DNA from: Geotalea daltonii FRC-32
GTDB lineage: Bacteria; Desulfobacterota; Desulfuromonadia; Geobacterales; Geobacteraceae
Direction: 5' to 3'
DNA: 32,000 bases
Assembly: GCF_000022265.1 (NCBI RefSeq)
Contig: NC_011979.1
Location: 3,570,001-3,602,000, forward strand
Of this stretch, positions 1-24,975 are shown in pieces (positions within the stretch are counted from its first letter, which is position 1; each line of letters starts with the position of its first letter). Under the pieces are notes generated by a model. The model was not told where the DNA came from, did not search any database, and saw nothing but the letters and a program-made list of their open reading frames with translations. Position numbers and translations under genes: made by a program.

Positions 1-723
1 CAGCGGCTCGGCCCTTACCGGGAAAGGGTGGCGCAGGGCCTGGCACGGGCTCACCTTGTGGCAGCACCGACAGCAGCAATGCTCAATGCCGTGGAAACGA
101 GCTATCTGCCCCTGGCCAATACCAGGGTTATCTACAATGGACGCTGCCGGAAAAGGTACCGACCCGACAACAAGATAAATTTCATCCTCTCCGTGGGGAG
201 GATCTGGGATGAGGCAAAAAATATCAACGCCATCGCCGAGCTTGCCGGCTCTCTCCCCTGGCCCGTGTTCATAGCCGGTGAGCAAAAGCACCCGGAGGGG
301 GAAACGACCTTCCTGGACAACGTCAACCACCTGGGAAATCTTCCCCCGGCCAGGCTTGCTCCCTGGTTTGCGACGGCAGCCATATATGCCTTGCCGGCCC
401 GTTATGAGCCTTTCGGCCTGACCGTACTCGAAGCGGCCCTGTCAGGCTGCGCCCTGGTCCTGGGGGATATTCCGAGCCTGCGCGAATTATGGGAAGGAGC
501 GGCTGTCTTTGTGCCGCCCGATGACGCCGATGTTCTGGCCGATGTTCTCCAGTCCCTGTGTCAGGATCGCACTCTCCGGGAAAGAATGGCAGAGAAGGCT
601 TTTGAAAGAAGCCGCTTTTTCAACCCGGACAAAATGGCAGCGGAATATTTTGCCGCCTATCTTTCCCTGAATTCCGGCCTCCGCCGTCAGGCGCCAGATG
701 AAGCCGTGAACTTCAGCAGTTGA
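1..723 (+). CDS. Glycosyltransferase, GT-B/GT4-like, C-terminal fragment (5' end lies upstream of the window)
   Basis: Frame 1 is open from base 1. The translation carries a GT4-type C-terminal signature (ARYEPFGLTVLEAALSGCALV, EX7E-like). The stop TGA at 721-723 abuts the next gene. Confidence 0.8.
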   Translation, partial: QRLGPYRERVAQGLARAHLVAAPTAAMLNAVETSYLPLANTRVIYNGRCRKRYRPDNKINFILSVGRIWDEAKNINAIAELAGSLPWPVFIAGEQKHPEGETTFLDNVNHLGNLPPARLAPWFATAAIYALPARYEPFGLTVLEAALSGCALVLGDIPSLRELWEGAAVFVPPDDADVLADVLQSLCQDRTLRERMAEKAFERSRFFNPDKMAAEYFAAYLSLNSGLRRQAPDEAVNFSS

Positions 724-731
724 AAGGAACC

Positions 732-1868
732 ATGATGCGTATTGTAATGTTCTACCATTCCATAATATCCGACTGGAATCACGGCAATGCCCATTTCCTG
801 CGGGGAATAGTGACGGAACTTCTGGGGAGAGGCCATCAGGTGGAAGTTTATGAGCCGAAGGAAGGCTGGAGCCTTACCAATCTCCTGCGTGAACAGGGGG
901 AGATTGCCATCAGGCAGTTCCGCAGGATGTACCCGCTACTGGACAGTAAACAGTATGTTGCCGAACGTCTGAACCTGGACCAGATTTTTGAGGGGGCCGA
1001 CCTGGTAATAGTCCATGAATGGAACGACCACGAGGTTGTCAGGAAAATCGGCGAGCACCGGAAAAGAAACGGCTATTACCACCTCCTGTTCCACGACACC
1101 CATCACCGGTCGGTCACCGACTATGATTCCATGAACGCCTACGATCTGTCGGGCTACGATGGCGTACTGGCCTATGGTACCAAGATCAGGGACATCTACC
1201 TGAAAAGCGGCTGGACCAAGCGGGGCTGGGTCTGGCACGAGGCTGCGGATATCCAGGTCTTCCAGCCCCACAGCCCGATGGATTATGCCGGTGATGTGGT
1301 CTGGATCGGCAACTGGGGAGATGACGAGCGCAGCGAGGAAATCTGCGAGTTCTTTGTGGAGCCGGTGAAACGGCTCAAGTTGAAGGGGATGGTCTATGGG
1401 GTCAGGTACCCGGAAAAGGCCCTGAAGCTTCTGGAAAAAGCGGGCATTGAGTATGGAGGCTGGCTGCCCAATTTCGATGTGCCCAAGGTCTTCAACCGGT
1501 ACCGGCTGACCATGCACATACCGCGTCGTCCCTATGCCAGCGCCCTGCCCGGCATACCGACCATCAGGCCCTTCGAGGCCCTGGCATGCGGCATTCCGCT
1601 CATTTCGGCACCATGGTCAGACTGCGACAGGCTGTTCACGGCAGGGGAAGACCTGCTCTATGCCGAGGACGGCTTCCACATGGAAAGACAGATGAAGGCA
1701 GTCCTGGACCAGCCTTTGAAGACCGAACAGATGGTCAACCATGGCCTGAAGACCATCAGGGAGCGCCACACCTGCAGCCACAGGGTCGATGAGCTGCTGC
1801 GCATCTGCACAGAGTTGGGCATGGACACCAGCCTGCCCAGGAACAGGAAAATCGGGGGAAAAGGATGA
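732..1868 (+). CDS. CgeB/YkvP-like glycosyltransferase (Glyco_trans_1_2 type), paralog 1 of 3
   Basis: ATG at 732/735; the track start at 720 is a TTG overlapping the upstream stop. The N-terminus MRIVMFYHSIISDWNHGNAHFLRG and the C-terminal block RPFEALACGIPLIS...RERHTCSHR align by eye with the next two ORFs. Confidence 0.75.
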   Translation: MMRIVMFYHSIISDWNHGNAHFLRGIVTELLGRGHQVEVYEPKEGWSLTNLLREQGEIAIRQFRRMYPLLDSKQYVAERLNLDQIFEGADLVIVHEWNDHEVVRKIGEHRKRNGYYHLLFHDTHHRSVTDYDSMNAYDLSGYDGVLAYGTKIRDIYLKSGWTKRGWVWHEAADIQVFQPHSPMDYAGDVVWIGNWGDDERSEEICEFFVEPVKRLKLKGMVYGVRYPEKALKLLEKAGIEYGGWLPNFDVPKVFNRYRLTMHIPRRPYASALPGIPTIRPFEALACGIPLISAPWSDCDRLFTAGEDLLYAEDGFHMERQMKAVLDQPLKTEQMVNHGLKTIRERHTCSHRVDELLRICTELGMDTSLPRNRKIGGKG

Positions 1869-2974
1869 AAGGTTTTTCCATCGCATTTTTCGGGTCGAGC
1901 CTGGTCTCTTCCTACTGGAACGGAGCAGCCACCTATTACCGTGGCCTGATCTGCGCCCTCCATGCACGGGGCCACAGGGTAACTTTTTACGAGCCGGATG
2001 CCTTTGATCGGCAGCAGCACCGGGACATGGAAGATCCCCCCTGGGCGAAGGTACAGGTTTATTCGGCGACAGAGGAAGGTGTCTTTCGCTCTCTTGAAGC
2101 GGCCATGGGGGCAGATATAGTCGTCAAGGCCAGCGGCGTCGGGGTATTTGACGAGCTCCTGGAGAAAGAGGTGCTCTCCCTGAAGACGGCCGATAACAAA
2201 GTCGTTTTCTGGGATGTGGATGCCCCGGCAACCCTGGAGCGGATCAGTCACAATCCCCACGATCCTTTCCGCAGCCTCATTCCCGGCTATGACCTGATCC
2301 TCACCTATGGCGGCGGCGATCCCGTAGTTGACGGCTATGGCTCTTTCGGCGCCAGGGAATGCATCCCGGTCTACAACGCACTTGACCCGGACACCCATCA
2401 CCCGGTCCCCTCCGACCATCGTTTCTGTGCCGATCTGGCCTTTTTGGGCAATCGCCTCCCGGACCGGGAAAAACGGGTGGAGGAATTCTTTCTCAGAACC
2501 GCCGCCAGCCTTCCCCACAAAAGGTTTCTCCTGGCAGGAAGCGGCTGGGACGACAAACAGCGACCACGAAATGTGGACTACCTGGGGCATTTGGGGACGG
2601 CCAGTCACAACGCCTTCAACTGCAGCCCGCTGGCTGTTCTCAACATCAGCCGGGAAAGCATGGCGAAGAACGGCTTTTCACCCGCCACCAGGGTCTTCGA
2701 GGCGGCCGGTGCGGGAACATGCATCATCACCGACAGCTGGCAGGGGATCGAGCAGTTCTTTGAGCCGGGCAAGGAAATACTGGTAGCCGGCTCGGGGGAA
2801 GAAGTTGCGGATATTCTGGAACGCCTGACCCCCAGGGAAGCATCCATGGTCGGCCTGCATGCCTTCGCCAGGGTCCGGGCCGAGCATACCTATGCCCACC
2901 GGGCCAGGCAGGTGGAAGCCATTTTTATGGAAGAAGAATCGAGCATGGGCTCATATGCAGGAGGGGCAGCATGA
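1865..2974 (+). CDS. CgeB/YkvP-like glycosyltransferase, paralog 2 of 3
   Basis: ATGA start/stop overlap with the upstream gene (1865-1868). FFGSSLVSSYWNGAATYYRGL and NISRESMAKNGFSPATRVFEAAGAG...WQGIEQFFEPGKEIL are closely parallel to ORF 2971-4086. Confidence 0.8.
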   Translation: MKGFSIAFFGSSLVSSYWNGAATYYRGLICALHARGHRVTFYEPDAFDRQQHRDMEDPPWAKVQVYSATEEGVFRSLEAAMGADIVVKASGVGVFDELLEKEVLSLKTADNKVVFWDVDAPATLERISHNPHDPFRSLIPGYDLILTYGGGDPVVDGYGSFGARECIPVYNALDPDTHHPVPSDHRFCADLAFLGNRLPDREKRVEEFFLRTAASLPHKRFLLAGSGWDDKQRPRNVDYLGHLGTASHNAFNCSPLAVLNISRESMAKNGFSPATRVFEAAGAGTCIITDSWQGIEQFFEPGKEILVAGSGEEVADILERLTPREASMVGLHAFARVRAEHTYAHRARQVEAIFMEEESSMGSYAGGAA

Positions 2975-4086
2975 AAATAGTCATTTTCGGTCTTTCAATA
3001 ACATCCTCATGGGGAAACGGCCATGCCACAACCTATCGGGGGCTGGTGCGGGAACTGGCAAAGCTCGGCCATGAGATACTGTTCCTGGAGCGGGACGTGC
3101 CGTGGTACGCAACGAGCCGGGATCTCCCCTCCCCCCCCTATTGCCGGACGGTGCTCTATAACTCGGTGGATCTGCTCCTGAGTGACTACGGACGAGAGAT
3201 CATCGAAGCCGACTGTGTCATCGTCGGCTCCTATGTGCCGGACGGCATCGAAATCGGCAGATGGGTGACACGCAAGGCCAAGGGCATCACCGCCTTCTAT
3301 GACATCGACACGCCGGTGACCCTGGCAAAACTGGAACGGGGGGACTGTGAATACCTCAACCCCGAACTGATACCCATCTACCGTCTCTACCTTTCCTTTA
3401 CCGGCGGGCAGATCCTGGAGCGCATCAGGGAACAGTATGGGGCACGGGAAGCAGTGCCGCTCTATTGCTCGGTGGACCCGGAGGTTCATTACCCCATGCA
3501 GCAGCCTGCCAGATGGGACCTGGGCTACCTGGGCACCTACAGCACCGATCGTCAGTCCCCCCTGGAGCGCATGCTCTGCGAAACCGCCAACCTTTGGAAA
3601 GAAGGACGTTTCGTCGTCGCCGGCGCCCAGTATCCGGCGGGAATCGCCTGGCCGGACAACATGAAACACATCGAGCATCTCCCCCCGGAGCAGCATCGGG
3701 ATTTCTATAGTGCCCAGCGTTTTACCCTCAATATCACCAGAAAATACATGATCCAGGCAGGCTATTCCCCCAGCGTCCGCCTGTTCGAGGCGGCTGCCTG
3801 CGCCGTGCCGGTCATCAGCGACCAGTGGCCCGGCATCGAGGAGTTTTTCATCCCCGGCGAGGAGATCCTTTTGGCCTCCACAGCCGAAGAGGTACTGGGT
3901 TATCTGCGGGAGTTGTCCGATGAGGACCGTCAGGCCATGGGCCAGCGGGCTCGCAAGAGGGTGCTCCGGTCACACACCGCCGGACGCAGGGCGACCGAAC
4001 TTTTAAACTACATCGCCGGCTGTGAACAATTCAGAAGTAAACTTCCTTTATCAGGTGGTACCCATTATGGACTATGCCGATTCTGA
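2971..4086 (+). CDS. CgeB/YkvP-like glycosyltransferase, paralog 3 of 3
   Basis: ATGA overlap at 2971-2974. IFGLSITSSWGNGHATTYRGL and NITRKYMIQAGYSPSVRLFEAAACAVPVISDQWPGIEEFFIPGEEIL match paralog 2. Confidence 0.8.
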   Translation: MKIVIFGLSITSSWGNGHATTYRGLVRELAKLGHEILFLERDVPWYATSRDLPSPPYCRTVLYNSVDLLLSDYGREIIEADCVIVGSYVPDGIEIGRWVTRKAKGITAFYDIDTPVTLAKLERGDCEYLNPELIPIYRLYLSFTGGQILERIREQYGAREAVPLYCSVDPEVHYPMQQPARWDLGYLGTYSTDRQSPLERMLCETANLWKEGRFVVAGAQYPAGIAWPDNMKHIEHLPPEQHRDFYSAQRFTLNITRKYMIQAGYSPSVRLFEAAACAVPVISDQWPGIEEFFIPGEEILLASTAEEVLGYLRELSDEDRQAMGQRARKRVLRSHTAGRRATELLNYIAGCEQFRSKLPLSGGTHYGLCRF

Positions 4087-4852
4087 CGGTATTTCCGACA
4101 AAATAAAAGCCCTTTCCCCCTGGTTCCACAACCTGCACTTCGAGGATGGCACCCAGACCGCGCCGGACCATTTCCTGGGGGATTTCCCCAGATTCAAGTG
4201 GCTGCAGCTGGCACCCTTCATACCGGAGGATTTGAGCGGCTGCCATGCCCTGGATATCGGCTGCAATGCGGGGTTTTATACCTTCGAGTTGGCCAGGCGC
4301 GGGGCAGAGGTGACCGGTATCGACATTGACCAGCGCTACCTGGAGCAGGCCGACTGGGCGGCCCGGCAATACGGGCTTCAGGACAGGGTAACCTTCAGGC
4401 AGATGCAGGTCTACGACTTGGCGCGGGAGAAGGGAGAGTACGATCTGGTCCTCTTCATGGGTGTCTTCTATCATCTGCGCTATCCGCTGCTGGCCCTGGA
4501 CATCATCGCCCAGAAGGTAAAGGGAATGATGGTCTTCCAGACCCTGGCCATGCCCGGCAAGGAGATCTACAAGCAGGTGGACCACCCCATCAACGAAAGG
4601 GCTTCCCTTCTTGAGCCCGGCTGGCCCAAGATGGCCTTCATCGAATACCGCTTTGCAGGCGATCCCACCAACTGGTGGATACCCAATCACGCCGCCGTAG
4701 AGTCTTTGCTCAGATCAGCCGGCATGCGCATCACCGGCTATCCCGGACACGAAATATACCTCTGCGAACCAGACCATGAGGCGCCATCGTGCATCAGCAC
4801 CTGGAACCGGGAGGAGTACCTGGCGGCGCTGGGGGAAAATCCGGGCCGGTGA
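4067..4852 (+). CDS. Class I SAM-dependent methyltransferase, CmoB/DUF1698-like
   Basis: Motif I ALDIGCNAGFYTFELARRGA, an acidic post-I residue (TGIDID), and LFMGVFYHLRYP. ATG 4067 (alternative 4022) overlaps the end of the preceding gene. Confidence 0.8.
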   Translation: MDYADSDGISDKIKALSPWFHNLHFEDGTQTAPDHFLGDFPRFKWLQLAPFIPEDLSGCHALDIGCNAGFYTFELARRGAEVTGIDIDQRYLEQADWAARQYGLQDRVTFRQMQVYDLAREKGEYDLVLFMGVFYHLRYPLLALDIIAQKVKGMMVFQTLAMPGKEIYKQVDHPINERASLLEPGWPKMAFIEYRFAGDPTNWWIPNHAAVESLLRSAGMRITGYPGHEIYLCEPDHEAPSCISTWNREEYLAALGENPGR

Positions 4853-4877
4853 AAACCTCGATTTTAATCCGCGTTTT

Positions 4878-4913
4878 CCATGGCTGGGCAGCAATGCCCG
4901 GCCATTTATTTTT
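4878..4913 (+). terminator. Rho-independent terminator of the GT/methyltransferase operon
   Basis: Hairpin CCATGGCTGGGCA / ATGCCCGGCCAT followed by TTATTTTT, 26 nt after the stop codon. Confidence 0.7.
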
Positions 4914-5033
4914 CCCACCTCTTGCTTCTCACCCAATACTGATTTTAATTTTTCCAATTGAGTTGCACACATTTTTGGTGTAGTGATTGTGGTGGCTGGC
5001 ACTTGGTTGTTAATCGGCAGAAAAATCCCACCA

Positions 5034-5109
5034 GATGGGAATAATCCGTACTATGGCCCCAGATTTCTCCTGATGGGAATAATCCGTACTATGTCCCCAG
5101 ATTTCTCCT
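5034..5109 (+). repeat. Tandem direct repeat, 2 x 38 bp
   Basis: GATGGGAATAATCCGTACTATG[G/T]CCCCAGATTTCTCCT occurs at 5034-5071 and 5072-5109 with one mismatch. Confidence 0.95.
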
Positions 5110-5137
5110 TCGAAGTGAAGTTCGAAAGGAACAGATG

Positions 5138-5195
5138 GTTCAACCAGCGCCAAGACCGGTCTAAAAACCGCCGGTCAGGCTTTTGGACGTTGGTC
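5138..5195 (+). repeat. attC-like imperfect palindrome (copy 0 of a 3-member family)
   Basis: GTTCAAC-CAG-...GACCGG-TCTAAAAACCG-CCGGTC...-GTTGGTC. The outer AAC/GTT cores are complementary and there is an inner stem with bulges. Confidence 0.55.
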
Positions 5196-5202
5196 AAAAA
5201 AT

Positions 5203-5685
5203 ATGAGAAAAGAAAAACTACAAAAATTCCCATCCGAATCTACCCTTGAAGTCGCCAGTGGAGCAATTATTACGTTGGGCATCTACTTGCTTTTTTGGCG
5301 ACGTAACCACGGTAGAGCGATCAATCAACTTCTGCCTGAAAACCAGATAAGTGAAAAGTGGTATACCACATGCCTTTGGCTGAAAATCGCTATTGCTGCA
5401 TTTGCCGTAACTAAAATATTTGTTCCACATCCTGCTGTTAAAATTATTCTTCAACATTTAGGAAACGTCAGCTGGGTCTTGGAAATCATCTGGAACTTTA
5501 AAATCAGAAGCAGAATGAACTTAATTCTTGAAAGCCAATGGAAGACATCATCATGGTACAGCGCTTGTTGGACTTTCATATTTGGCGCTATTTACCTGCA
5601 ATACAAGCTGAACTGCCTCAAGAAGGAAGAAGGCCTGAGTATTGAGCCGGATAAAAATATCGATTTAGCCCAAAAGGCTGACTAA
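5203..5685 (+). CDS. Small integral membrane protein, DUF4234-like
   Basis: AT-rich ORF starting 13 nt after the GTT core at 5189. It has hydrophobic segments, and TLGIYLLFWRRNHGRAINQ and FGAIYLQYKLNCL resemble the two signature blocks I remember for DUF4234. Confidence 0.55.
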   Translation: MRKEKLQKFPSESTLEVASGAIITLGIYLLFWRRNHGRAINQLLPENQISEKWYTTCLWLKIAIAAFAVTKIFVPHPAVKIILQHLGNVSWVLEIIWNFKIRSRMNLILESQWKTSSWYSACWTFIFGAIYLQYKLNCLKKEEGLSIEPDKNIDLAQKAD

Positions 5686-5709
5686 GTCTTGATAATCAAT
5701 AGAGGCGAT

Positions 5710-5782
5710 TCCCAACCAGCCCCATGGACGCCGACCGCCATAAAACCCTGGGCGGGCGGGTCATGGGGGCACCCCGTTGGTC
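5710..5782 (+). repeat. attC-like imperfect palindrome (copy A)
   Basis: TCCCAAC-CAG-CCCCATGGACGCCGACCGCC-ATAAAACCCTG-GGCGGGCGGGTCATGGGGG-CACCCC-GTTGGTC. It is homologous to copies at 5138 and 10097, with different but still complementary stems. Confidence 0.6.
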
Positions 5783-5800
5783 GTAGGAAAAGGAGAGCAG

Positions 5801-6079
5801 ATGAAAACCGAAGAAATTGAAGAGATCAGAAAAGAAGTTGCAAAAGTGGCTCACATTTTAGCAACACCTATTGATTTCGATAAGTTAATAAGTGATGGCC
5901 TGCTCAAACAAGTCGGCACATCATACTACACAGACAACGTGCATGCGCTTCCGGAAAATATTTCAAAAAAAATAAAAACCTTCACCCCGACAAAAAAAGG
6001 GCTGAAGCTGACATTCTACAAAGAAACCAAAAAGATGATAAAGCTAGCAAAAGACACAGAGCATTTACGAGATAAATGA
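5801..6079 (+). CDS. Hypothetical protein (92 aa, Lys-rich)
   Basis: ATG 5801 is preceded by AAAGGAGAG. The track start at 5777 is the TTG of the GTTGGTC core. No family recognised. Confidence 0.5.
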   Translation: MKTEEIEEIRKEVAKVAHILATPIDFDKLISDGLLKQVGTSYYTDNVHALPENISKKIKTFTPTKKGLKLTFYKETKKMIKLAKDTEHLRDK

Positions 6080-6134
6080 TTTAAACGAGTCAGCACCTTG
6101 AACTAAAGGATTTTTCCGTGAAGGGGTAAGGTCA

Positions 6135-6587
6135 ATGAATACAGCTCTCATTGCAGGCTTATTTGCTTTTATAGGAGGTATCATTGGGCAGCTTCTAAAC
6201 CGAAACACACAACGGGAAACGTGGCTTTTACAAAAAAGGGCAGAGGTATTCTCTGAATATCTTGCTGCTGTTGAAAAGTATAATCAGGAATTATCAAAAA
6301 TTGTAGAAATGAATCTCAATAGTTCAGAAGAATGGAGACTAAGAACCGATGCAAGGAACGCGGTGAGAATATCTGAAAAGATTGTCTGTTTATATTTATC
6401 AGACGATAACAAAGAAGAGTTCAGAACTTTAGTTGAAAATTACTTTGACTTTGAACCTGATATTTATACGGATGGCGTTTTTGACACAGACAAATTAAAA
6501 ACATGTTGGGACCCACATTTTAAGATCGAAGATAACATCCAGAAGTTATTTGAAAAAAATATCTCTGATATATCTTGGTATAAGTAA
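6135..6587 (+). CDS. Hypothetical protein with a single N-terminal transmembrane helix (150 aa)
   Basis: MNTALIAGLFAFIGGIIGQLL is followed by a helical soluble part. AAGGGGTAAGG upstream is RBS-like. No family recognised. Confidence 0.5.
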   Translation: MNTALIAGLFAFIGGIIGQLLNRNTQRETWLLQKRAEVFSEYLAAVEKYNQELSKIVEMNLNSSEEWRLRTDARNAVRISEKIVCLYLSDDNKEEFRTLVENYFDFEPDIYTDGVFDTDKLKTCWDPHFKIEDNIQKLFEKNISDISWYK

Positions 6588-6632
6588 AAATAATGGAGCG
6601 GTGAAGCACGCTCACCGCCCACGACGTTGGAA
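6588..6632 (+). other. Degenerate attC-like site
   Basis: Hairpin GGAGCGGTGA/TCACCGCCC, a 5-nt spacer, then GTTGGAA. The 3' half matches the family, but the 5' core reads AAATAAT instead of ..AAC. Confidence 0.3.
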
Positions 6633-6660
6633 GCATAGAAAAGACTTCATCGGGGTACAA

Positions 6661-7020
6661 ATGAGAAAGTCAGGTTTTGTCGGAGAGCAAGAAATCTATC
6701 TTGTTAAAGGATACGCTGGGGTGCTTTCTTGGATTAGTAACGTTAAAAGCACAGAGAGATTTACTGACATAGAATTGATTTTTTATTCTACTGTTTTTCA
6801 ATCAGGGATACAGCAGTATATTTTCCCAGAGTCTGTTTCCGATAGAACATCGACTGTTAGTTTCGTCAAGAATGGGACGAATTCCGGGACGAATTCCGGG
6901 GACACCTTACTTGGACGAATTCCGGGGACACCTAATGACGAATTCCGGGGACTGACGAATTCCGGGGACGACGAATTCCCAACGAATTCCGGCAACGAAT
7001 TCCGGGGACACCTTACTTAA
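6661..7020 (+). CDS. Possible cassette ORF whose 3' part runs into the REP array (probably disrupted)
   Basis: ATG 6661 in an open frame. From about 6878 the translation is just repeat-encoded (TNSGTNSGD...EFRG). No RBS is evident. Confidence 0.2.
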   Translation: MRKSGFVGEQEIYLVKGYAGVLSWISNVKSTERFTDIELIFYSTVFQSGIQQYIFPESVSDRTSTVSFVKNGTNSGTNSGDTLLGRIPGTPNDEFRGLTNSGDDEFPTNSGNEFRGHLT

Positions 7021-7150
7021 TTACCGGCAACGAATTCCGGGGACACCTTACTTAATTACCACTTGACTTATAAGAAGCATTAAATTAATTTCTGCACATG
7101 GCACGTATCGCTCGCGTCAACGAATTCCGGGGACACCTTACTTAATTACC
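6878..7150 (+). repeat. REP-like array, left side of the RAYT gene (10 copies of the ACGAATTCC(GGGGA) core)
   Basis: The core is counted by eye at irregular 12-35 nt spacing. Three long copies read GGCAACGAATTCCGGGGACACCTTACTTAATTACC (6991, 7026, 7118). Confidence 0.9.
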
Positions 7151-7207
7151 ACTTGACTTATAAGAAGCATTAAATTAATTTCTGCACATGGCACGTATCG
7201 CTCGCGT
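7028..7207 (+). repeat. Perfect 90-bp tandem duplication covering the REP copy, promoter and first 20 nt of the RAYT CDS
   Basis: 7028-7117 is identical to 7118-7207 (90/90 by eye). Confidence 0.95.
7153..7181 (+). promoter_or_regulatory. Putative sigma70 promoter of the RAYT gene (near-leaderless)
   Basis: TTGACT (7153-7158), a 17-nt spacer, then TAATTT (7176-7181). The ATG lies 7 nt downstream with no visible RBS. The same module is duplicated at 7063-7091. Confidence 0.4.
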
Positions 7208-7850
7208 AATAGCAACCGGCATCCCTCACCATGTTACTCAACGTGGCAATCGGCGATTGACAACCTTCTTCGGAGATGAGGACTACCAGAGCTATATTGA
7301 TCTCATGGCCGAATGGTGCCGGAAGTGTGGTGTGGAAATATGGGCATACTGTCTGATGCCTAATCATGTGCATCTTATCGCCGTGCCGGAGAGTGAAGAC
7401 GGGTTGCGGAGAGGGATTGGAGAAGCACACAGGCGATATAGTCGGATGGTTAACTTCCGGCAAGATTGGCGAGGGCATCTCTGGCAAGGAAGATTTGCCT
7501 CCTTTCCGATGGATGAATCCTATCTTTTAGCAGCGGCCCGATATGTAGAAATGAATCCAGTACGAGCCCACCTTGTACCGGAACCGGAATTATGGCCCTG
7601 GAGCAGCGCACGAGCGCATATGGCGGGCGCAGATGATCAATTGGTAAAGGTGGCCCCGCTTCTGGAGATGGTTGGGGATTGGAAACTTTTTCTTAGTGCA
7701 GCAACTGATGAAGAGATGGAAAAGATAAGACGCCACGAGCGAACCGGCAGACCTTTGGGTTCAGACGGTTTTGTAAATCAACTGGAGTCGGCCCTGGACC
7801 GCATGCTGACGCGCGGAAAGCCAGGCCCAAGGGGCAGGAGAATTAAGTAA
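7188..7850 (+). CDS. REP-associated tyrosine transposase (RAYT, IS200-like Y1/HUH, COG1943-type)
   Basis: GIPHHVTQRGNRR, HUH motif LMPNHVHLI, GHLWQGRF, and the catalytic Tyr block ARYVEMNPVRA..WPWSS. The gene is flanked by inverted repeats. Confidence 0.85.
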   Translation: MARIARVIATGIPHHVTQRGNRRLTTFFGDEDYQSYIDLMAEWCRKCGVEIWAYCLMPNHVHLIAVPESEDGLRRGIGEAHRRYSRMVNFRQDWRGHLWQGRFASFPMDESYLLAAARYVEMNPVRAHLVPEPELWPWSSARAHMAGADDQLVKVAPLLEMVGDWKLFLSAATDEEMEKIRRHERTGRPLGSDGFVNQLESALDRMLTRGKPGPRGRRIK

Positions 7851-7929
7851 GGTGTCCCCCGAATTCCGTCCCGCGCGGAAAGCCAGGCCCAAGGGGCAGG
7901 AGAATTAAGTAAGGTGTCCCCCGAATTCC
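7811..7929 (+). repeat. 62-bp-period tandem duplication of the RAYT 3' end plus right inverted repeat
   Basis: 7811-7867 is identical to 7873-7929 (57/57), including the last codons, the stop and the inverted repeat. Confidence 0.95.
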
Positions 7930-7976
7930 TCCCCCGAATTCCGTCCCCCGAATTCCCAGTCCCCCGAATTCCCGTC
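7841..7976 (-). repeat. REP-like array, right side of RAYT (5 copies, inverted relative to the left array)
   Basis: TCCCCCGAATTCC cores lie at about 7857, 7919, 7932, 7946 and 7963. Confidence 0.9.
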
Positions 7977-7977
7977 C

Positions 7978-8008
7978 ATCGGGTAGTGCGGTCCAAGCCC
8001 GCACACCC
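7978..8008 (-). other. Hairpin plus terminal 9-mer shared with the group II intron 3' end at 9807-9840 (possible solo domain VI)
   Basis: ATCGGGTAG followed by GTGCGG/CCGCAC inside GGG(T)/(A)CCC. The architecture matches 9807-9840, with a different inner stem. Confidence 0.3.
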
Positions 8009-8023
8009 TCAGCCCCGTTGAAA
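8003..8023 (+). other. 3' half of an attC-like site (GTTGAAA core)
   Basis: CCCTCAGCCCCGTTGAAAGG parallels GCTCTCAGCCGTTGAACAG at 9233-9251. The NHL ORF starts 13 nt after the G|TT. Confidence 0.35.
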
Positions 8024-8029
8024 GGAGAA

Positions 8030-9151
8030 ATGATGAGGAGAATCTTTATACGAACCGCACTTGCCGCAGCAATTGTTTCAGCTTTGTCACTTGGAGGATG
8101 CGGCAGTAATCAGAATGGCATTTCTACAATTCAAATGGGCGGTGCTAAACAGGGAAATCTCCTCACGCTTACTGGAACGGTATCCGTTCTTGCAGGTCAG
8201 GCACCGCAAATGGGTACAGCCGATGGAACCGGTTCAGCGGCTCGATTTAATGCTCCCTCCGGTATAACGACCGACGGTACTAACCTCTATGTGGCGGACA
8301 CAGGAAATAATTTAATCCGCAAAGTAGTGATTACGACCGGTGCAGTTACTACACTTGCAGGGACAGTTGGGACAGGTACTGCCCAAACGAGTGGATCAAC
8401 CGATGGAACAGGCTCTGCGGCTAAGTTCAACGCTCCATTTGCCATTACCACCGATGGAACAAACCTTTATGTCGCTGACACAAACAACAATACAATTCGT
8501 AAAGTAGTCATTGCGACTGGTACAGTTACAACTTTGGCAGGCAGTGTCGGGATACCAGGCTCAGCTGATGGGATTGGCCCTGCAGGGCTGTTCAATTCAC
8601 CAGGTGGAATTACAACCGACGGCACAAACCTCTATGTGTCAGACACAGGCAACAGAACAATTCGTAAAGTTGTAATTGCAACTGGCGCCGTAACCACCCT
8701 TGCAGGCAGCGCCGGAACGCCTGGCTCAACCGATGGGGTCGGTCCGTCGGCCCTTTTCGGTACAGTATTCGGAATCACAACAGACGGAACGAGTCTTTTT
8801 GTCGCCGACACTGATAACAGCACAATTCGCAAAATCGTAATTGCGACAGGGATGGTAACTACTTTGGCCGGAAGCGCTGGGGTTAGTGGCATAGCTGATG
8901 GAACGGGCTCTACTGCCAAATTCAATGCACCATTTGGCATCACAACTGACGGTACAAACCTTTATGTAACTGATTCAAGACAAGGCTCAATTCGCAAAGT
9001 CGCAATTGCAACTGGTGTTGTGACAACTTTGGTAAATGGCAGTTCATTGACCACAATATCTCCTTTAAATTTTCCCTTAGGTATCTCGACTGATGGCCTA
9101 AACCTTTATGTTGCGGACACAGATAACAGCACTATCGACTTGATCAAGTAA
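8030..9151 (+). CDS. Lipoprotein with a six-bladed NHL-repeat beta-propeller
   Basis: Signal peptide and lipobox (ALSLGGC). There are six repeats of about 57-60 aa of the type FNAPxGITTDGTNLYVADTxNNTIRKVVIATGxVTTLAG. AAGGAG RBS at 8022-8027; ATG at 8030/8033. Confidence 0.85.
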   Translation: MMRRIFIRTALAAAIVSALSLGGCGSNQNGISTIQMGGAKQGNLLTLTGTVSVLAGQAPQMGTADGTGSAARFNAPSGITTDGTNLYVADTGNNLIRKVVITTGAVTTLAGTVGTGTAQTSGSTDGTGSAAKFNAPFAITTDGTNLYVADTNNNTIRKVVIATGTVTTLAGSVGIPGSADGIGPAGLFNSPGGITTDGTNLYVSDTGNRTIRKVVIATGAVTTLAGSAGTPGSTDGVGPSALFGTVFGITTDGTSLFVADTDNSTIRKIVIATGMVTTLAGSAGVSGIADGTGSTAKFNAPFGITTDGTNLYVTDSRQGSIRKVAIATGVVTTLVNGSSLTTISPLNFPLGISTDGLNLYVADTDNSTIDLIK

Positions 9152-9176
9152 TACTCCTACAAAGAAGAAGGCTAAC

Positions 9177-9248
9177 TTTCAACAAAGCGCGGCAGACGGT
9201 CTCCGCTTCGCTCCGCCGCTCCGCCGCTGCGGCTCTCAGCCGTTGAAC
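9177..9248 (+). repeat. attC-like site (different sequence family)
   Basis: TTTCAAC (9177-9183) and GTTGAAC (9242-9248) are complementary at 6/7 positions and flank a GC-rich, imperfectly pairing interior. The site lies between two ORFs. Confidence 0.4.
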
Positions 9249-9273
9249 AGCAAGGATAAAAGAGAGGGAGGTC

Positions 9274-9792
9274 ATGCAAATAAAAAAGGGATACTTAATC
9301 TTCTTGCTACTCTTTATGTGGCTTATTTTAACTGGCTGTGGGTCTAGTTCTTCTGATGCACAAGGAACTTCTTCTCTTCCAACAAACGAGAGCAAGGTTA
9401 CTGCAACTCAAGGGGTATGGGGCAATGTCTGGTTTTGGACGGGCAATTTTATGCCATCGGTTGCAGGCACTACAAACTCCTCTGGTAACATAACGCCTGT
9501 GGTTCGTGAAATTTTTGTCTATAAAGCCACCACGATAAGTGATGTCATGCCCTATTCTTTAGGAGAATTTTACTCATACATTCCCTCCGAGCTTGTTGCG
9601 AAAACGTCATCAGATGAGACTGGTTTCTTTCAAGTCACCCTTTCACCCGGCACCTACAGTATTTTTGTCAAGGAGGGCTCAGCGTTTTATGCTAACAAGT
9701 TTGATGGACAGGGCAGAGTCAACCCTGTAGAGGTAGTGCCTGGTGCAGTGACGAAACTTCAGATAGACATAAATTATCAAGCCACTTTTTAA
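9274..9792 (+). CDS. Small lipoprotein, possible carboxypeptidase-regulatory-like beta-sandwich
   Basis: Lipobox LILTGC, RBS GGGAGG, and GFFQVTLSPGTYSIFV, which is typical of CarboxypepD_reg-like folds (from memory). Confidence 0.6.
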   Translation: MQIKKGYLIFLLLFMWLILTGCGSSSSDAQGTSSLPTNESKVTATQGVWGNVWFWTGNFMPSVAGTTNSSGNITPVVREIFVYKATTISDVMPYSLGEFYSYIPSELVAKTSSDETGFFQVTLSPGTYSIFVKEGSAFYANKFDGQGRVNPVEVVPGAVTKLQIDINYQATF

Positions 9793-9807
9793 GAGAACGC
9801 GGTTCAA

Positions 9808-10002
9808 TCGGGTAGCCAGGGGTCTTAGCCCCCCAGCCCCCCACACCACCCGGCATGCGGGTCCGCACCGGGCGGTTCGTTGAAGTTACCGGGCCGTAGC
9901 CGGGTAGTGGATCTTCACCCACTGTTCTTTGACAGATACAAGACCTTGATCTTTCAGCCATTGATTGGTCATACCGTGCTGGGCTGCCAGTCGGCGGGGG
10001 GC
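9808..10002 (-). mobile_element. 5'-truncated group II intron remnant (IEP C-terminal codons, domain V, domain VI)
   Basis: The minus strand encodes ..RRLAAQHGMTNQWLKDQGLVSVKEQWVKIHYPATAR* (stop at 9886-9888), which resembles intron maturase C-termini. A domain V-like hairpin lies at 9845-9876 (ACCGCCCGG-TGCG-GACC-CGCA-[TG bulge]-CCGGGTGGT). A domain VI-like hairpin with a bulged A 7 nt from the end lies at 9807-9840. Confidence 0.6.
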
Positions 10003-10032
10003 CTTAAGGGGACGTGGGGCCTTAAGGGGACG
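9998..10032 (+). repeat. Tandem repeat, 2 x GGGGCCTTAAGGGGACG (18-bp period)
   Basis: Copies at 9998-10014 and 10016-10032, located at the truncation edge of the intron remnant. Confidence 0.9.
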
Positions 10033-10096
10033 GATTAGCACTGCGGGTTAGTCAACTAATGGGGTCTGCCCTTGAAGTGGGAAAATAAAAATGGAT

Positions 10097-10162
10097 TCCC
10101 AACGAGACCAGTGGACCCGGTCGCGTTAAACCTGCGTCGGGTCACCGGCCGAGCCGTTATAC
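10097..10162 (+). repeat. attC-like imperfect palindrome (copy B)
   Basis: TCCCAAC-GAG-ACCAGTGGACCCGGTCGC-GTTAAACCT-GCGTCGGGTCACCGG-CCGAGCC-GTTATAC. The 5' flank GATTCCCAAC is identical to copy A. Confidence 0.55.
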
Positions 10163-10306
10163 AACCCATATCTGAACGTGCGAGATATCTAAATGATTGA
10201 AATAAAGACCATAGCCCTATTCCTTATATACACGACCTGCTGCCGTTGGGGTTCCGGGGACATCCATGATAAGAATTAATTCACACCCATAAGGAGATTT
10301 CCCGAA

Positions 10307-11053
10307 ATGGACATCCCCCGGATATTCAACATCACCGAAAGTGCTCACCGCATCCATAACCCGTTCACACCCGAAAAACTCGCCACTCTCGGCGCGGCGC
10401 TGCGTCTGGAAACGGGGACCCGCGTGCTCGACCTCGGCAGCGGTTCGGGGGAGATGCTGTGCACCTGGGCACGCGATCACGGCGTCATCGGCACCGGCAT
10501 CGACATGAGCCAGTTGTTCACCGAGCAAGCGAAACTCCGTGCTGTAGAACTCGGCGTAACCGAACAAGTCAAGTTCATCCATGGCGATGCTACAGGCTAC
10601 GTCTCCGACGACAAGGCCGGTGTGGCAGCCTGTGTCGGTGCCACTTGGATCGCCGGGGGAGTCGCCGGCACTATCGAGCTTCTGGCGCGGAGCCTGCGCA
10701 CCGGAGGGATCATCCTCATCGGCGAGCCCTACTGGCGGCAGTTACCGCCGACGGAAGATGTCGCCAAGGGGTGTCTTGCCAACTCAATCTCCGATTTTCT
10801 CATGCTTCCAGAACTTCTCGCGTCTTTCGGCCACCTTGGCTGCGACGTAGTTGAAATGGTTCTGGCTGACCAAGACGGCTGGGACAGATACGAGGCGGCC
10901 AAATGGCTCACCATGCGCCGATGGCTTGAAGCCAATCCCGACGACGAGTTGGCACAAGATGTTCGAGCCAAACTGACCTCGGAACCCGAGCGCTACGCCG
11001 CTTACACGCGTGAATACCTGGGCTGGGGTGTGTTCGCGCTGATGCCGCGGTGA
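10307..11053 (+). CDS. Class I SAM-dependent methyltransferase
   Basis: Motif I VLDLGSGSGEM; GIDMS; IHGDA; GGIILIGEP. RBS AAGGAG lies upstream. Confidence 0.8.
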   Translation: MDIPRIFNITESAHRIHNPFTPEKLATLGAALRLETGTRVLDLGSGSGEMLCTWARDHGVIGTGIDMSQLFTEQAKLRAVELGVTEQVKFIHGDATGYVSDDKAGVAACVGATWIAGGVAGTIELLARSLRTGGIILIGEPYWRQLPPTEDVAKGCLANSISDFLMLPELLASFGHLGCDVVEMVLADQDGWDRYEAAKWLTMRRWLEANPDDELAQDVRAKLTSEPERYAAYTREYLGWGVFALMPR

Positions 11054-11139
11054 TGCGTTGGCGCATCCGGCGGATCGTCAACGGGTGCGGCGCAACAGCT
11101 GGTGGCTCGCCGAGATGTGAGTGAGCCTAGAAACAATGA

Positions 11140-11707: not shown

Positions 11708-12772
11708 ATGCGTAAAAAAGTTTTGTTCAGAACCGGCTTGTTCGCCCTCAGCCTGCTCATGGTGATCCAGTTCACCTCGGGCACCCCCGGTGGAGCCACC
11801 AAAGCCGCACCGTGGAAGTTTGCCGTTCTCTGCGACAATCGCAGCAACCCCTGTGTACCCGGGGGTGGCGTTCAAGGGGTGAATGTGGAGGTGCTTGGCA
11901 AGATGGCTGCGGAGGTGGCTGCGGAAAAGGTGGATGTGGTGCTTGTGCCGGGGGACATTGCCCTGGGCAACGGCTATACCTGTACGCCGCCGACACCACC
12001 CCCCAATCCCGCCGATCAGCAGTACCAGCTCTGGCGGCAGACCATGAAGCCGGTCTACGACTCGGGTGCAAAGGTCTTGCCGGTCCGGGGCAACCACGAG
12101 ATGGACAAGGACGCAGTCTTGAGCGACTGGAGCAGCTGTCGCAAGCGGGTACCCATCGAATCGAAGCTGTTGGACGCCTACCGGTCCGTATTCAACGATC
12201 CATACCTGAAGAAAATCAGCCCCGATAGCCAAAAGGGCCTGACCTATGCCCTGCCCCACAAGAATGCCCTGTTCATCGGTTTCGACCAGATCACCGATCA
12301 GTTCCAGGTGGACCAGAAATGGTTCGACCGGGTCCTGGCCAAGAACAAGCGGGAACATCTGTTCGTCTTCGGCCACTATCCCGCCTTTGCAGTGAAGCAT
12401 AAAGACTGCCTGGCCTGCTATGGAGCGGCGCGGGATCGCTTCTGGAATGCCATCGGCAATGCCGGCGGCCGTCTCTACTTCTGCGGCCATGACCATTTCT
12501 ACGACCGGGCGATTATCCCGGACGCCAAAGGACGCCTGCTCCAACAGGTGCTGGTGGGTAACGGCGGCGCACCATTCGCTTCAACCACCGCACCCTATGC
12601 CGATCCCCGAGTCGAACCCGCCGAGCACATCGAAAATGCCTATGGCTATATGGTGGTAACGGTGGACGGGGACAGCGTCTCGGCAAAGCTGAAGGTGCTG
12701 GATCTCCCATCGGGAACGTGGCGGAACGCCGATGCCTTCTGCTACGCCCAGCGGCGCACTGCCGGAAAATAG
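11708..12772 (+). CDS. Exported calcineurin-like metallophosphoesterase
   Basis: Signal peptide MRKKVLFRTGLFALSLLMV. Motifs VPGDIALGN, VRGNHE, FGHYP, CGHDHFYDR. RBS AGGGAGG. Confidence 0.8.
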   Translation: MRKKVLFRTGLFALSLLMVIQFTSGTPGGATKAAPWKFAVLCDNRSNPCVPGGGVQGVNVEVLGKMAAEVAAEKVDVVLVPGDIALGNGYTCTPPTPPPNPADQQYQLWRQTMKPVYDSGAKVLPVRGNHEMDKDAVLSDWSSCRKRVPIESKLLDAYRSVFNDPYLKKISPDSQKGLTYALPHKNALFIGFDQITDQFQVDQKWFDRVLAKNKREHLFVFGHYPAFAVKHKDCLACYGAARDRFWNAIGNAGGRLYFCGHDHFYDRAIIPDAKGRLLQQVLVGNGGAPFASTTAPYADPRVEPAEHIENAYGYMVVTVDGDSVSAKLKVLDLPSGTWRNADAFCYAQRRTAGK

Positions 12773-22844: not shown

Positions 22845-23966
22845 ATGAAAGCAGTTTTGGCGCTCGCTGACGGGCGCATTTTCAAGGGCAGGTCTTTCGG
22901 CGCATCCGGTGAAGCTACCGGTGAGGTAGTCTTCAACACCGCCATGACCGGTTACCAGGAGGTCCTCACCGACCCATCATACAAGGGGCAGATGGTCACC
23001 ATGACCTATACCCAGATCGGCAATACCGGGATCAATGGAGAGGATATCGAGAGCAAACAGCTCTATCTTTCAGGGTTTATCGTCAAGGAATATCACGACT
23101 GCCACTCCAACTGGCGCGCCACCATGAGCCTGGATGCCTATCTCAAGGAAAACGGCATCGTCGGCATTCAGGGGCTGGATACACGAGCGTTGACACGCCA
23201 TCTGCGTGACAATGGCGCACAGAACGGCATCATCTCCACCGTCGATTTCGATCCTGAGAGTCTTGTAAAAAAAGCGCGTGCTATCCCCAGCATGGCCGGG
23301 CTCGATCTCGCCTCCGGCGTCAGCACCGACAAGCCTTACCACTGGACACAGGGGCTGTGGGATCTGGAAGGGGGATACCCTGAGGTTGATGCCAAGAACC
23401 TGAAATACAAAGTGGTAGCCTACGATTTCGGCATCAAGTACAACATTCTCCGTTGTCTGGTGGATGCAGGCTGCGATGTGACCGTGGTCCCTGCCACCTT
23501 CCCGGCGGAAGAGGCGTTGGCCATGAATCCGGATGGCATATTCCTCAGTAACGGCCCTGGCGATCCGGAGCCACTGGTCAAGGTCCAGGAAGAGATCAGA
23601 AAGTTCATCGGCAAGAAGCCCATTTTCGGCATCTGCCTGGGTCACCAGCTCCTTGGGCTTGCCCTTGGCGGCAAGACCATCAAGCTGAAATTCGGCAACC
23701 ACGGCTCCAATCTGCCGGTCATGGACATGGAGACAAGAAAGGTGGAGATCACCGCCCAGAACCACGGCTTTGCCGTCGATTTGGAATCGTTGGGTGATGT
23801 TGCTTGCCTGGGGCATGAGAACCTCAACGACCAGACGGTGGAAGGCATCCGCCACTGCACGCTGCCCATATACTCGGTGCAGCATCATCCGGAGGCATCG
23901 CCGGGGCCGCACGATTCACATTATCTGTTCGCGCGTTTTGTAGAGCTGATGGAGAAAAATCGGTAA
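22845..23966 (+). CDS. carA: Carbamoyl-phosphate synthase small (glutaminase) subunit
   Basis: ATG 22845 after AGGAG. MKAVLALADGRIFKG; GICLGHQLL (catalytic Cys); VQHHPEA. Confidence 0.95.
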   Translation: MKAVLALADGRIFKGRSFGASGEATGEVVFNTAMTGYQEVLTDPSYKGQMVTMTYTQIGNTGINGEDIESKQLYLSGFIVKEYHDCHSNWRATMSLDAYLKENGIVGIQGLDTRALTRHLRDNGAQNGIISTVDFDPESLVKKARAIPSMAGLDLASGVSTDKPYHWTQGLWDLEGGYPEVDAKNLKYKVVAYDFGIKYNILRCLVDAGCDVTVVPATFPAEEALAMNPDGIFLSNGPGDPEPLVKVQEEIRKFIGKKPIFGICLGHQLLGLALGGKTIKLKFGNHGSNLPVMDMETRKVEITAQNHGFAVDLESLGDVACLGHENLNDQTVEGIRHCTLPIYSVQHHPEASPGPHDSHYLFARFVELMEKNR

Positions 23967-24048
23967 CTGGTCGGCGGTGGATAGTCGACGGTAAAGCAGA
24001 TTGATGTTTTTTACCTTCCGACCATCGGCTGCCGACCGCCGACTGTTT

Positions 24049-24975
24049 ATGCGTTACATCGATCTTTATCAATCTGGAGAATTATTGCAGCGCATCCGTG
24101 CTGCTTATCAGCGACTGAAAAGCTGCGACCTCTGCCCCCACGACTGCCGGGTCAACCGGCTGGCAGGTGAGACGGGCATCTGCCGTAGCGGTGCTTTGCC
24201 GAAAATTGCCTCGGCTAACATCCATCGCGGCGAGGAACCGCCGATTTCAGGCTCGCGCGGTTCGGGAACGATCTTCTTTTCCAACTGCAACCTGTCGTGT
24301 CGCTTCTGCCAGAACTTCCCCATCAGTCAGTTCGGCAACGGAGAAGAGCTGAGCATAAGGCAGTTGGCGGAGAAGATGCTCAAGCTGCAACGGCAAAAGG
24401 CGCACAACATCAACCTGGTTACGCCGAGCCATTTTTTGCCCCAGTTTCTCGCTGCCCTCTTCATGGCCATCAAGGAAGGCTTCAATCTCCCCATCGTCTG
24501 GAATTCCAACGGCTACGAAAAGGTCGATGTGTTGCAGCTGCTGGACGAGATCGTAGATATTTACCTGCCAGACATGAAATACGCCGCCGATGAACCGGCC
24601 AGGGCACTTTCCGGCGCCCCAGCCTATCCAACCTTCAACAGGCTGGCCGTCCGGGAGATGCTGCGCCAGGTTGGGCAACTGCAGGTTGATGAAGAAGGTA
24701 TCGGTATTCGTGGGCTGATCGTCCGGCACCTGGTATTACCCGTAAATAAGGCTGGAAGCGATGAAACCTTGCCCTGGATTGCAAAACACCTGGGAGAGGC
24801 AACCCACGTGGCGCTGATGAGCCAGTATTTTCCGGCCCATTTGGCAAGAGCCACCCCAGGCATTGACCGGCCCCTGACTGCCGAGGAATACGATGCAGCG
24901 GTGGAAGCGCTGGAAGAGGCAGGACTTGAATCGGGCTGGGTACAGGAACTGGAACAGGAGCGCCGGCCGGTATGA
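24049..24975 (+). CDS. Radical SAM protein, PflX-like (COG1313 type)
   Basis: CDLCPHDCRVNRLAGETGIC; GSGTIFFSNCNLSCRFCQN (CX3CX2C); HNINLVTPSH; DIYLPDMKY. The start could be 24004 or 24049. Confidence 0.8.
   Translation: MRYIDLYQSGELLQRIRAAYQRLKSCDLCPHDCRVNRLAGETGICRSGALPKIASANIHRGEEPPISGSRGSGTIFFSNCNLSCRFCQNFPISQFGNGEELSIRQLAEKMLKLQRQKAHNINLVTPSHFLPQFLAALFMAIKEGFNLPIVWNSNGYEKVDVLQLLDEIVDIYLPDMKYAADEPARALSGAPAYPTFNRLAVREMLRQVGQLQVDEEGIGIRGLIVRHLVLPVNKAGSDETLPWIAKHLGEATHVALMSQYFPAHLARATPGIDRPLTAEEYDAAVEALEEAGLESGWVQELEQERRPV

Follow-up and report, generated by a model that had tools for sequence, protein, structure and literature searches.

A probable integron cassette array with divergent attC sites in the chromosome of Geotalea daltonii FRC-32

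Integrons have been reported in Geobacter (PMC2426708, PMC3001079), and a cluster of attC sites lacking an integron-integrase (CALIN) is defined in IntegronFinder as two or more attC sites that share a strand, are separated by less than 4 kb and have no intI gene within 4 kb (Cury et al. 2016; PMC4889954). Half of the known CALINs lie in replicons that encode IntI elsewhere (PMC4889954). Here we describe a 5-kb island at positions 5138-10162 of a 32-kb stretch of the Geotalea daltonii FRC-32 chromosome (NC_011979.1; the whole stretch is called the window below), in which three imperfect palindromes at 5138-5195, 5710-5782 and 10097-10162 are very probably attC sites of an integron cassette array comprising six sites and five cassettes. 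Sedentary chromosomal integrons carry species-typical attC families, of which the Vibrio cholerae repeats (VCRs) of Vibrio are an example. By analogy with established integron biology, each site would form a hairpin from its bottom (minus) strand, and an integron integrase would bind this hairpin at the R box (AAC/GTT), the unpaired spacer, the L stem and the extrahelical bases and cut between A and C opposite G|TT, leading to excision or insertion of a cassette.

The island is like a CALIN in the common strand and close spacing of its attC-like sites, in the lack of an intI within 4 kb of them, in its small number of cassettes, in its lack of resistance genes and in carrying an insertion of insertion sequence (IS) type. 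It differs in that the class was assigned here by the published definition and not by an IntegronFinder call, and in that only one of the six sites was recognised by a model trained on class 1 integrons. With sedentary chromosomal integrons it shares a chromosomal location, co-oriented cassettes, and one attC family that stands behind unrelated open reading frames (ORFs) and is common to metagenome-assembled genomes (MAGs) of Geobacterales and Desulfuromonadales, but no platform of intI, attI and cassette promoter (Pc) was seen here, at least three attC subfamilies are mixed, and there are five cassettes only.

For the comparison with class 1 integrons, which were found with an IntI1 query whose sequence was verified as 100% identical to real IntI1, attC sites of aadA, aacA4, blaVIM-2, dfrA and other cassettes were taken from plasmids L013-L023 (L numbers denote our comparison loci). 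From 14 different sites read at plasmid cassette junctions we built a covariance model, R1, that includes the R box, the L box and the extrahelical position; a second model, R2, was built from the family to which the 5710 and 10097 sites belong. Like class 1 attC sites, the sites of the island have AAC...GTT inverse cores and a spacer that is unpaired; in their L stem the 5' side of the top strand bears an extra base, the top is variable and the crossover is at G|TT. In blaVIM-2 the extra base is likewise a G (GTT[G]CAGCC), and the loop motif CCGCTTCGC is carried by the island site at 9177-9248 too. They differ in the conserved 5' flank of about 35 nt that accompanies one subfamily here and in the failure of R1 and R2 to recognise each other's training sites, as well as in the lengths of spacers and stem, to which we return below.

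The last comparison is with group IIC-attC introns such as S.ma.I2 and Ge.s.I1, which insert at TTGT/T in the R'' core of the attC bottom strand, antisense to the cassettes, and which have been recorded in CALINs and in Geobacter, 5'-truncated copies having also been described (PMC3001079, PMC7923331). An intron remnant within the island resembles these introns and the copy in L021 in its near-identical domains V-VI, its antisense orientation, its position in the gap between ORF and attC, and a 3' exon in an R'' half-site. It differs in being a 5'-truncated fragment of about 185 nt with no reverse transcriptase, and the rest of the attC that it split is gone.

Six attC-like sites on one strand

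A first-pass annotation made from the sequence alone had claimed three homologous palindromes of attC architecture, and the cores, bulged stems and loops that it described were found exactly at the three positions given above. Three further sites absent from that annotation were found in the island, at 6578-6632, 7977-8023 and 9177-9248, and every gap between ORFs in the island holds a palindrome with a GTTRRR-like end. All six are intergenic and on the plus strand, each directly 3' of a plus-strand ORF, with spacings of 0.5-1.4 kb and with 8-30 nt between the GTT and the start of the next island ORF. Cuts at G|TT give five co-oriented plus-strand cassettes of 587, 850, 1391, 1225 and 914 bp.

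The first site (5138-5195, plus strand; c1 type) reads GTTCAAC-CAG...TAAAAACC...GTTGGTC, with the 5' core R'' (GTTCAAC) at 5138-5144, the 3' core R' (GTTGGTC) at 5189-5195 and the crossover at G5189|T5190, and is about 80% identical to an intergenic site of L007 (CTTCAAC-TAG...GTTTTTT) that itself adjoins a site of the 10097 type. The second (5710-5782, plus strand) reads TCCCAAC-CAG...ATAAAACCC...GTTGGTC, with R'' TCCCAAC, a bulged G in CCCCAT[G]GAC and R' at 5776-5782; its relatives are found at L010 4803-4880, where the cores are canonical (GCATAAC-CAG...GCACCCC-GTTGAAC), and in L025 and L033. The sixth site, which was the third copy of the first-pass annotation (10097-10162, plus strand; c3 type), forms the right end of the array and reads TCCCAAC-GAG...TTAAACC...GTTATAC, with R'' TCCCAAC, a bulged G in CCAGTG[G]AC and R' GTTATAC at 10156-10162. 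The homology claimed among these three copies holds for the second and sixth sites, which have 19 of 23 bases in common at the 5' end and score 69 and 87 bits with R2 (both are training sequences of that model), but not for the 5138 site, whose R2 score of 8.2 bits (E=3.4) places it in a separate subfamily. Its true relatives are sites in L007, L009 and L010.

Among the three additional sites, the one at 9177-9248 (plus strand) has R'' TTTCAAC and R' GTTGAAC and is the one recognised by the class 1-derived model. The site at 6578-6632 (plus strand) is degenerate: its R'' reads GTATAAG, with a C to G change, overlaps the stop codon and is followed by a hairpin (GGAGCGGTGA/TCACCGCC) and then by CCCACGAC-GTTGGAA. 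The 3' half of this site matches L011 1668-1812 and L008 7676-7740, the latter being also a match to the class 1 model. The minus strand of the same site scores as an intrinsic terminator (6596-6620), with a 10-bp stem followed by CATTATTTTT, which suggests that some attC sites in the array double as antisense terminators, the kind of target preferred by group IIC introns. In the site at 7977-8023 (plus strand) the R' GTTGAAA is present at 8017-8023 and R'' has gone at a repeat junction of a neighbouring transposase element; from CATCGG onward this site is about 80% identical to a site of L009, GCCTAAC-CATCGGATGGTGCGG...GTTGGCT, and since the relative keeps GCCTAAC, the window copy has lost its R''.

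Four sites (5138, 5710, 9177 and 10097) thus have intact AAC/GTT cores and stems, and the inverse cores are incomplete in the 6578 site (AAG) and the 7977 site (R'' lost). Agreement with the consensus RYYYAAC/GTTRRRY is partial, in that GTTCAAC fits, TCCCAAC deviates at position 1 (T), and GTTGGTC and GTTATAC have one deviation each. Two other candidates were rejected: 9803-9886 (GTTCAAT...GTTGAAG) is formed by intron domains V-VI on the minus strand, and 11050-11110, a candidate last attC after a methyltransferase gene, has a folding z-score of -0.1 to -0.2 and no model match.

Relatives, crossover signature and fold

A pattern of the 19 specified bases common to the 5710 and 10097 sites was used to scan genomes and metagenomes. 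Nine matches were returned by the genome scan, eight of them true (seven in Geobacterales, Desulfuromonadales or 'delta proteobacterium' MAGs and one in a Dongiaceae MAG) and one a chance match, and 18 of the 20 metagenome matches were genuine. All genuine matches continue for about 45 further bases and so span the entire hairpin, and identity to the 10097 site is 90% or more in most of them; copies of that site at this level of identity stand in about 20 other contigs. Among about 25 copies, homology ends at G|TT, and both the sequence beyond GTT and that further upstream are unrelated between contigs. When the 21 distinct copies of the 5710/10097 family are compared, 64 of the 84 positions directly after GTT, four per copy, agree with RRRY (p=8e-7), and the 12 nt after these positions have a pairwise identity of 30%, which is that of random sequence. 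A break in homology at G|TT followed by RRRY is what integron crossover predicts: one attC, joined to various cassettes on its downstream side. Most copies have a ribosome-binding site and a start codon within 10-30 nt after the GTT.

In L006-L011, L030 and L034 the relatives lie within runs of co-oriented small ORFs, the gaps of which hold other sites with canonical cores, such as GCATAAC...GTTGAAC and GCCTAAC...GTTGGCT; the arrays of L006-L011 are low-GC DNA. As a separate observation, the Dongiaceae MAG (L004) and a metagenome contig (L039) both carry a 10097-type attC with GTC in place of GTT before the same downstream gene, and this pair reflects either a cross-class cassette transfer or a mis-binned Geobacterales contig.

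The 10097-type sites are preceded by a conserved 5' box, which in the window is GGGGTCTGCCCTTGAAGTGGGAAAATAAAAATG (10064-10096, plus strand); it is kept in most copies, and the sequence further upstream is unrelated. In about 20 related loci the consensus is GGGGTCAGCCCTTGAAAGTGGAAAA, then about 10 A-rich nt, then GATTCCCAAC, and the box was found only together with a 10097-type attC. From a comparison by eye with this consensus we infer a weak copy, CTTCGAAGTGAAGTTCGAAAGGAACAGATG, before the first site of the array (5100-5137, plus strand). Of the 24 copies in which a box is recognisable, 14 have a mini-ORF of 5-6 codons (TTG AAA GTG GAA xxx stop, encoding MKVEx-stop), preceded in some by a Shine-Dalgarno (SD)-like GGAGG, and on the bottom strand the box puts a T-rich run after the attC hairpin. 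Together, box, A-rich nucleotides and attC form a module of about 110 nt, copies of which follow unrelated ORFs both in Geobacterales genomes and in metagenome contigs and remain 90% or more identical. It is conceivable, if doubtful, that the module is the cognate site class of a distinct (e.g. deltaproteobacterial) integron-integrase lineage with the box as a functional accessory. In that case the box might be bound, as an arm-type site, by the integrase or by a host factor; it might be an antisense terminator that also serves group IIC-attC introns as a homing signal; or its mini-ORF might be a leader through which translation is coupled across the hairpin. An interpretation of the box as two attI-like direct repeats (TTGAAARTGGA x2) was rejected, the second repeat not being conserved in the metagenome copies.

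Each of the three palindromes of the first-pass annotation folds into a long bulged hairpin on either strand, with modest folding z-scores (-0.85 to -2.5). The unpaired spacers measure 3-4 nt on the 5' side and 6-8 nt on the 3' side, where the annotation had given 2-6 nt, and 6 bp separate spacer from bulge. In a covariation test on an alignment of 18 family members, 7 of 17 stem pairs show compensatory changes and 86% of cells are paired, against at most 45% with the 3' partner slid; none of 500 shuffles matched the observed percentage paired or the covariation score. Below a fixed TG[G]AC...GTC, four bases of the stem vary together with their partners, giving four compensated versions (CCAG/CACC-type, CCGT/CAAC, CCCA/CATG and CCCT/CAAG), all of which retain the extra G. 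This bulged base is on the top-strand 5' arm (on the bottom strand, the 3' half), which is the expected arm, the one that carries the extrahelical base in real class 1 attC sites; as a bottom-strand C it differs from the commonest class 1 case and equals that of blaVIM-2. A coding explanation for the conserved 5' arm was rejected on our own reading of the copies, which vary at second codon positions.

Architecture alone would not have identified these sites. A generic scan for AAC-hairpin-GTT found 17 places in the window, mostly inside genes; the bare architecture is thus common in this GC-rich window, and the case rests on homology and context. One of two generic energy scans ranks 5710-5782 first by energy per base, and these scans were dropped as a statistic since they did not separate the island from the coding background. 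An ungapped inverted-repeat search misses bulged stems.

R1, searched with filters off, has a sole match in the window, a full-length plus-strand match to 9177-9248 (22.3 bits, E=0.002). In the related loci it matches L008 5259-5320 (E=0.0011), L008 7676-7740 (E=0.039) and L030 4267-4316 (E=0.029), all three on the strand of the 10097-type copy, as are seven of the eight R1 matches with E<1 in these loci. R2 finds extra same-strand sites at L008 784, 5619, 6643 and 7676, L010 3852, L034 5851 and 7465, and L007 525. L008 7676 and 6643 score with both models, weakly, and of these scores only that of R1 on 7676 (E=0.039) is below 0.05. No significant R1 or R2 site was found in the 32-kb window outside the island.

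The intron remnant noted above lies at 9807-9990 on the minus strand, antisense to the cassettes, between the ORF at 9274-9792 and the next attC, and consists of domains V-VI (9807-9877) and the last 30 or so maturase codons. Its domains V-VI match RF00029 at 40.0 bits, equal to the gathering score (E=2.4e-5), with a CGC triad; its maturase C-terminus matches the ltrA of L021 (E=1e-8), and its domains are near-identical to those of the class 1 integron intron in that locus, plasmid pWLK-NDM of Raoultella ornithinolytica. The junctions correspond, GCGCCTA|ATCGGG in L021 and GCGGTTCA|ATCGGG in the window, so that the 3' exon of the remnant is the left half of an R'' (GGTTCA|AC). This left part, GGTTCA|, stands at 9800-9806 (plus strand), and its bottom-strand 3' exon T|GAACC fits the TTGT/T target. 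In L021 itself (2526-5393) we observed a class 1 integron with NUDIX and yjjG cassettes, in which an intact intron (ltrA) separates yjjG from an aadA-type attC; the exon junctions there rebuild GCCTAAC|AATTC if insertion took place at TTGT/T.

The attC assignment therefore draws on the homology break at G|TT with RRRY, the co-oriented arrays, the covarying stems with a fixed bulge, the R1 matches and the remnant of a group IIC-attC intron. The attC identity proposed in the first-pass annotation is thus supported, mainly by evidence between genomes.

Class and condition of the array, and rival explanations

A tblastn search of the window with IntI1 gave nothing below E=0.7, with no intI or intI pseudogene, and Pfam scans of the large ORFs of the window found no integrase. 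The flanks of the array in the window are free of intI over 5.1 kb on the left and 21.8 kb on the right. An intI with attI and Pc beside the first cassette, as in a complete integron, was not seen in the window, and the number, common strand and spacing of the six sites, together with the intI-free flanks, agree with the definition of a CALIN. With no intI in the window, the array is either a CALIN or a distal segment of a sedentary chromosomal integron, and a compatible IntI, if one is encoded elsewhere in the genome, could still mobilise its cassettes in trans.

Several results weigh against the attC assignment. No intI was found in the 26 related loci either (8 from genomes and 18 from metagenomes, 1-14 kb), so that the family has no physical link to an integrase in these loci or in the window. 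Two of the sites have an R'' that begins with T instead of R, and two R' heptamers depart from RRRY. The R-L geometry is unlike that of class 1, with a 5' spacer of 3-4 nt instead of 5, a 3' spacer of 6-8 nt instead of 5-6, and 6 bp instead of 3 bp between spacer and bulge. R2 is not significant on class 1 attC sites, its best real one being the cmlA1 attC (13.5 bits, E=0.5), and R1 gives no match at E<=10 to the 5138, 5710 or 10097 sites. With this home-built class 1 model, the attC covariance check called for in the first-pass annotation gave no match to the three palindromes named there and one to 9177-9248. Array membership and intermediates link the three missed sites to canonical ones, and we regard them as divergent attC sites.

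The array is decaying. One R'' carries a point mutation (6578-6632), a second has been removed by an element of the type encoding a REP-associated tyrosine transposase, or RAYT (7977-8023), and one attC was split by the group IIC-attC intron that was later truncated. The RAYT-like element (6875-7980, plus strand) contains a Y1 transposase gene at 7188-7850 (PF01797, E=1.9e-13; NF047646, 63 bits, below the cutoff of 80) flanked by 26-bp inverted repeats, GAATTCCGGGGACACCTTACTTAATT, that are tandemly multiplied on both sides, and it destroyed a cassette ORF together with the R'' of the following attC. Duplications of 90 bp (7025-7204) and 62 bp (7810-7933) re-copy the start and the end of the transposase gene.

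The presence of this gene raises the question of whether the palindromes could be repetitive extragenic palindromic (REP) elements, or the REP doublets known as REPINs, spread by the RAYT of the island (7188-7850) and unrelated to integrons. The elements are intergenic imperfect palindromes just 3' of stop codons, and the generic hairpin architecture is common in this GC-rich genome. The gene has its own, unrelated flanking inverted repeats (GAATTCCGGGGACACCTTACTTAATT), however, and the palindromes lack a conserved 5' tetranucleotide of GTAG type. They are also confined to one strand within 5 kb, with none in the other 27 kb of the window or its roughly 25 intergenic gaps, so that the REP-like scatter named in the first-pass annotation as grounds for abandoning the attC assignment was not seen within the window. 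Near-identical copies stand in many genomes between unrelated flanks, with homology that stops at GTT and is followed by RRRY, a pattern that to our knowledge is not shown by REPs, and we consider this explanation extremely improbable. A conserved module between variable flanks, followed in most copies, within 10-30 nt, by a ribosome-binding site and a start codon, would also be expected of a cis-regulatory RNA, whether a riboswitch-like 5' leader of the downstream gene or a 3' untranslated region or terminator, and the SD-like GGAGG and mini-ORF of 5-6 codons often found in the 5' flank and the terminator-like bottom strand of some sites point in the same direction. The downstream genes are mutually unrelated, however, the sense strand has no U-tract after the hairpin, and conservation ends at GTT and not at the start codon. 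Rfam searches, run over the island at E<=5 and over the whole window with gathering thresholds, gave no family for the palindromes and only the group II intron. Moreover, a leader would leave unexplained the co-oriented arrays with other attC-like sites and the attC-specific intron, and we consider an RNA of this kind very improbable as the explanation of the module; a regulatory role would not exclude attC function.

A further explanation accepts that the sites are attC but holds that the island is a fixed relic, its sites no longer being integrase substrates in this genome. As a statement on current activity this is plausible: there is no intI in the 32 kb, R'' is damaged in two of the six sites (6578-6632 and 7977-8023), IS and intron debris lie inside cassettes, and upstream of the array there is a terminator and no promoter above background. 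The DNA is also 100% identical in two independent sequencing runs (SRR9436588 and SRR29904085, both represented by short Logan contigs without an integrase). Set against this are the intact AAC/GTT cores and stems of the four sites at 5138, 5710, 9177 and 10097, and the conservation of the 10097-type site at 90% or more in many genomes, suggestive of continuing selection or of a recent transfer. With half of the known CALINs on replicons with an IntI elsewhere (PMC4889954), we consider the fossil explanation unlikely and retain that of an integron cassette array, decayed in part.

Cassettes, surroundings and implications

The ORFs of the island are small, on the plus strand and mostly without family assignment. 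Cassette A (5190-5776, plus strand, 587 bp) contains an ORF at 5203-5685 of the DUF4234 family that starts 8 nt after R', and cassette B (5777-6626, plus strand, 850 bp) contains two ORFs, 5801-6079 and 6135-6587, neither of a known family. In cassette C (6627-8017, plus strand, 1391 bp), an ORF that begins at 6661 is broken near 6875 by the RAYT-type element, and cassette D (8018-9242, plus strand, 1225 bp) encodes an NHL-repeat lipoprotein at 8030-9151. Cassette E (9243-10156, plus strand, 914 bp) is composite, with a lipoprotein-like ORF at 9274-9792, then mobile-element debris, and then the sixth attC. Promoter-like sites in the island show no excess over a shuffled background, and the cassette ORFs read as promoterless.

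The debris of cassette E includes, at 9995-10060, two tandem copies of an 18-bp repeat, CGGGGGGCCTTAAGGGGA, followed by a small palindrome that reads GATTAGCAC...TTAGTCAACTAAT, and it is this composite that truncates the intron. The same composite stands beside the same truncated intron in a Desulfuromonadales MAG (L010 5393-6144), where it is flanked by inverted CGTCCCCTTATGCC repeats. It is debris of MITE (miniature inverted-repeat transposable element) or REP character, and looks like a MITE or the REP of a second RAYT-type element.

The GC content is 0.36-0.5 from about 5000 to 10200 and about 0.55-0.6 before 5000. A glycosyltransferase/methyltransferase operon identified by Pfam scans, which includes a TIGR04290 methyltransferase gene at 4022-4852, occupies 1-4852 (plus strand, GC about 0.58) and ends in an intrinsic-terminator-like hairpin at 4880-4905 with a T-run (4880-4915, plus strand), which we take as the left boundary of the island. 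Between this terminator and the first attC, directly to the left of the latter, lies a 38-bp tandem direct repeat, two copies of CCAGATGGGAATAATCCGTACTATGGCCCCAGATTTCT that are 95% identical (5031-5106), which could derive from an attI-like region or from some other element. On the 3' side of the island follow core genes: a metallophosphoesterase (11708-12772), a glycyl-radical enzyme with its activase, an aldehyde:ferredoxin oxidoreductase (AFOR), pyr/car genes and greA. The generic hairpin scan also flagged a near-perfect palindrome in the gap between carA and a radical-SAM gene (23961-24051; stem of about 27 bp, -17 kcal/mol), which is unrelated to the attC family.

As one more chromosomal cassette array of the CALIN kind, in an environmental Geobacter-like bacterium, the island belongs to a class of element that is well known and routine for integron biology, and it is an array of a kind typical of Geobacterales. 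It also provides an example of attC sites that are largely missed by a class 1-trained model and yet are recognisable by comparative evidence, which is relevant to how sensitively attC sites are detected in bacteria other than Gammaproteobacteria. Finally, one attC subfamily, together with its 5' flank, is nearly unchanged in many genomes of Geobacterales and many metagenome contigs, which points to active cassette exchange or to the formation of new cassettes in these bacteria.

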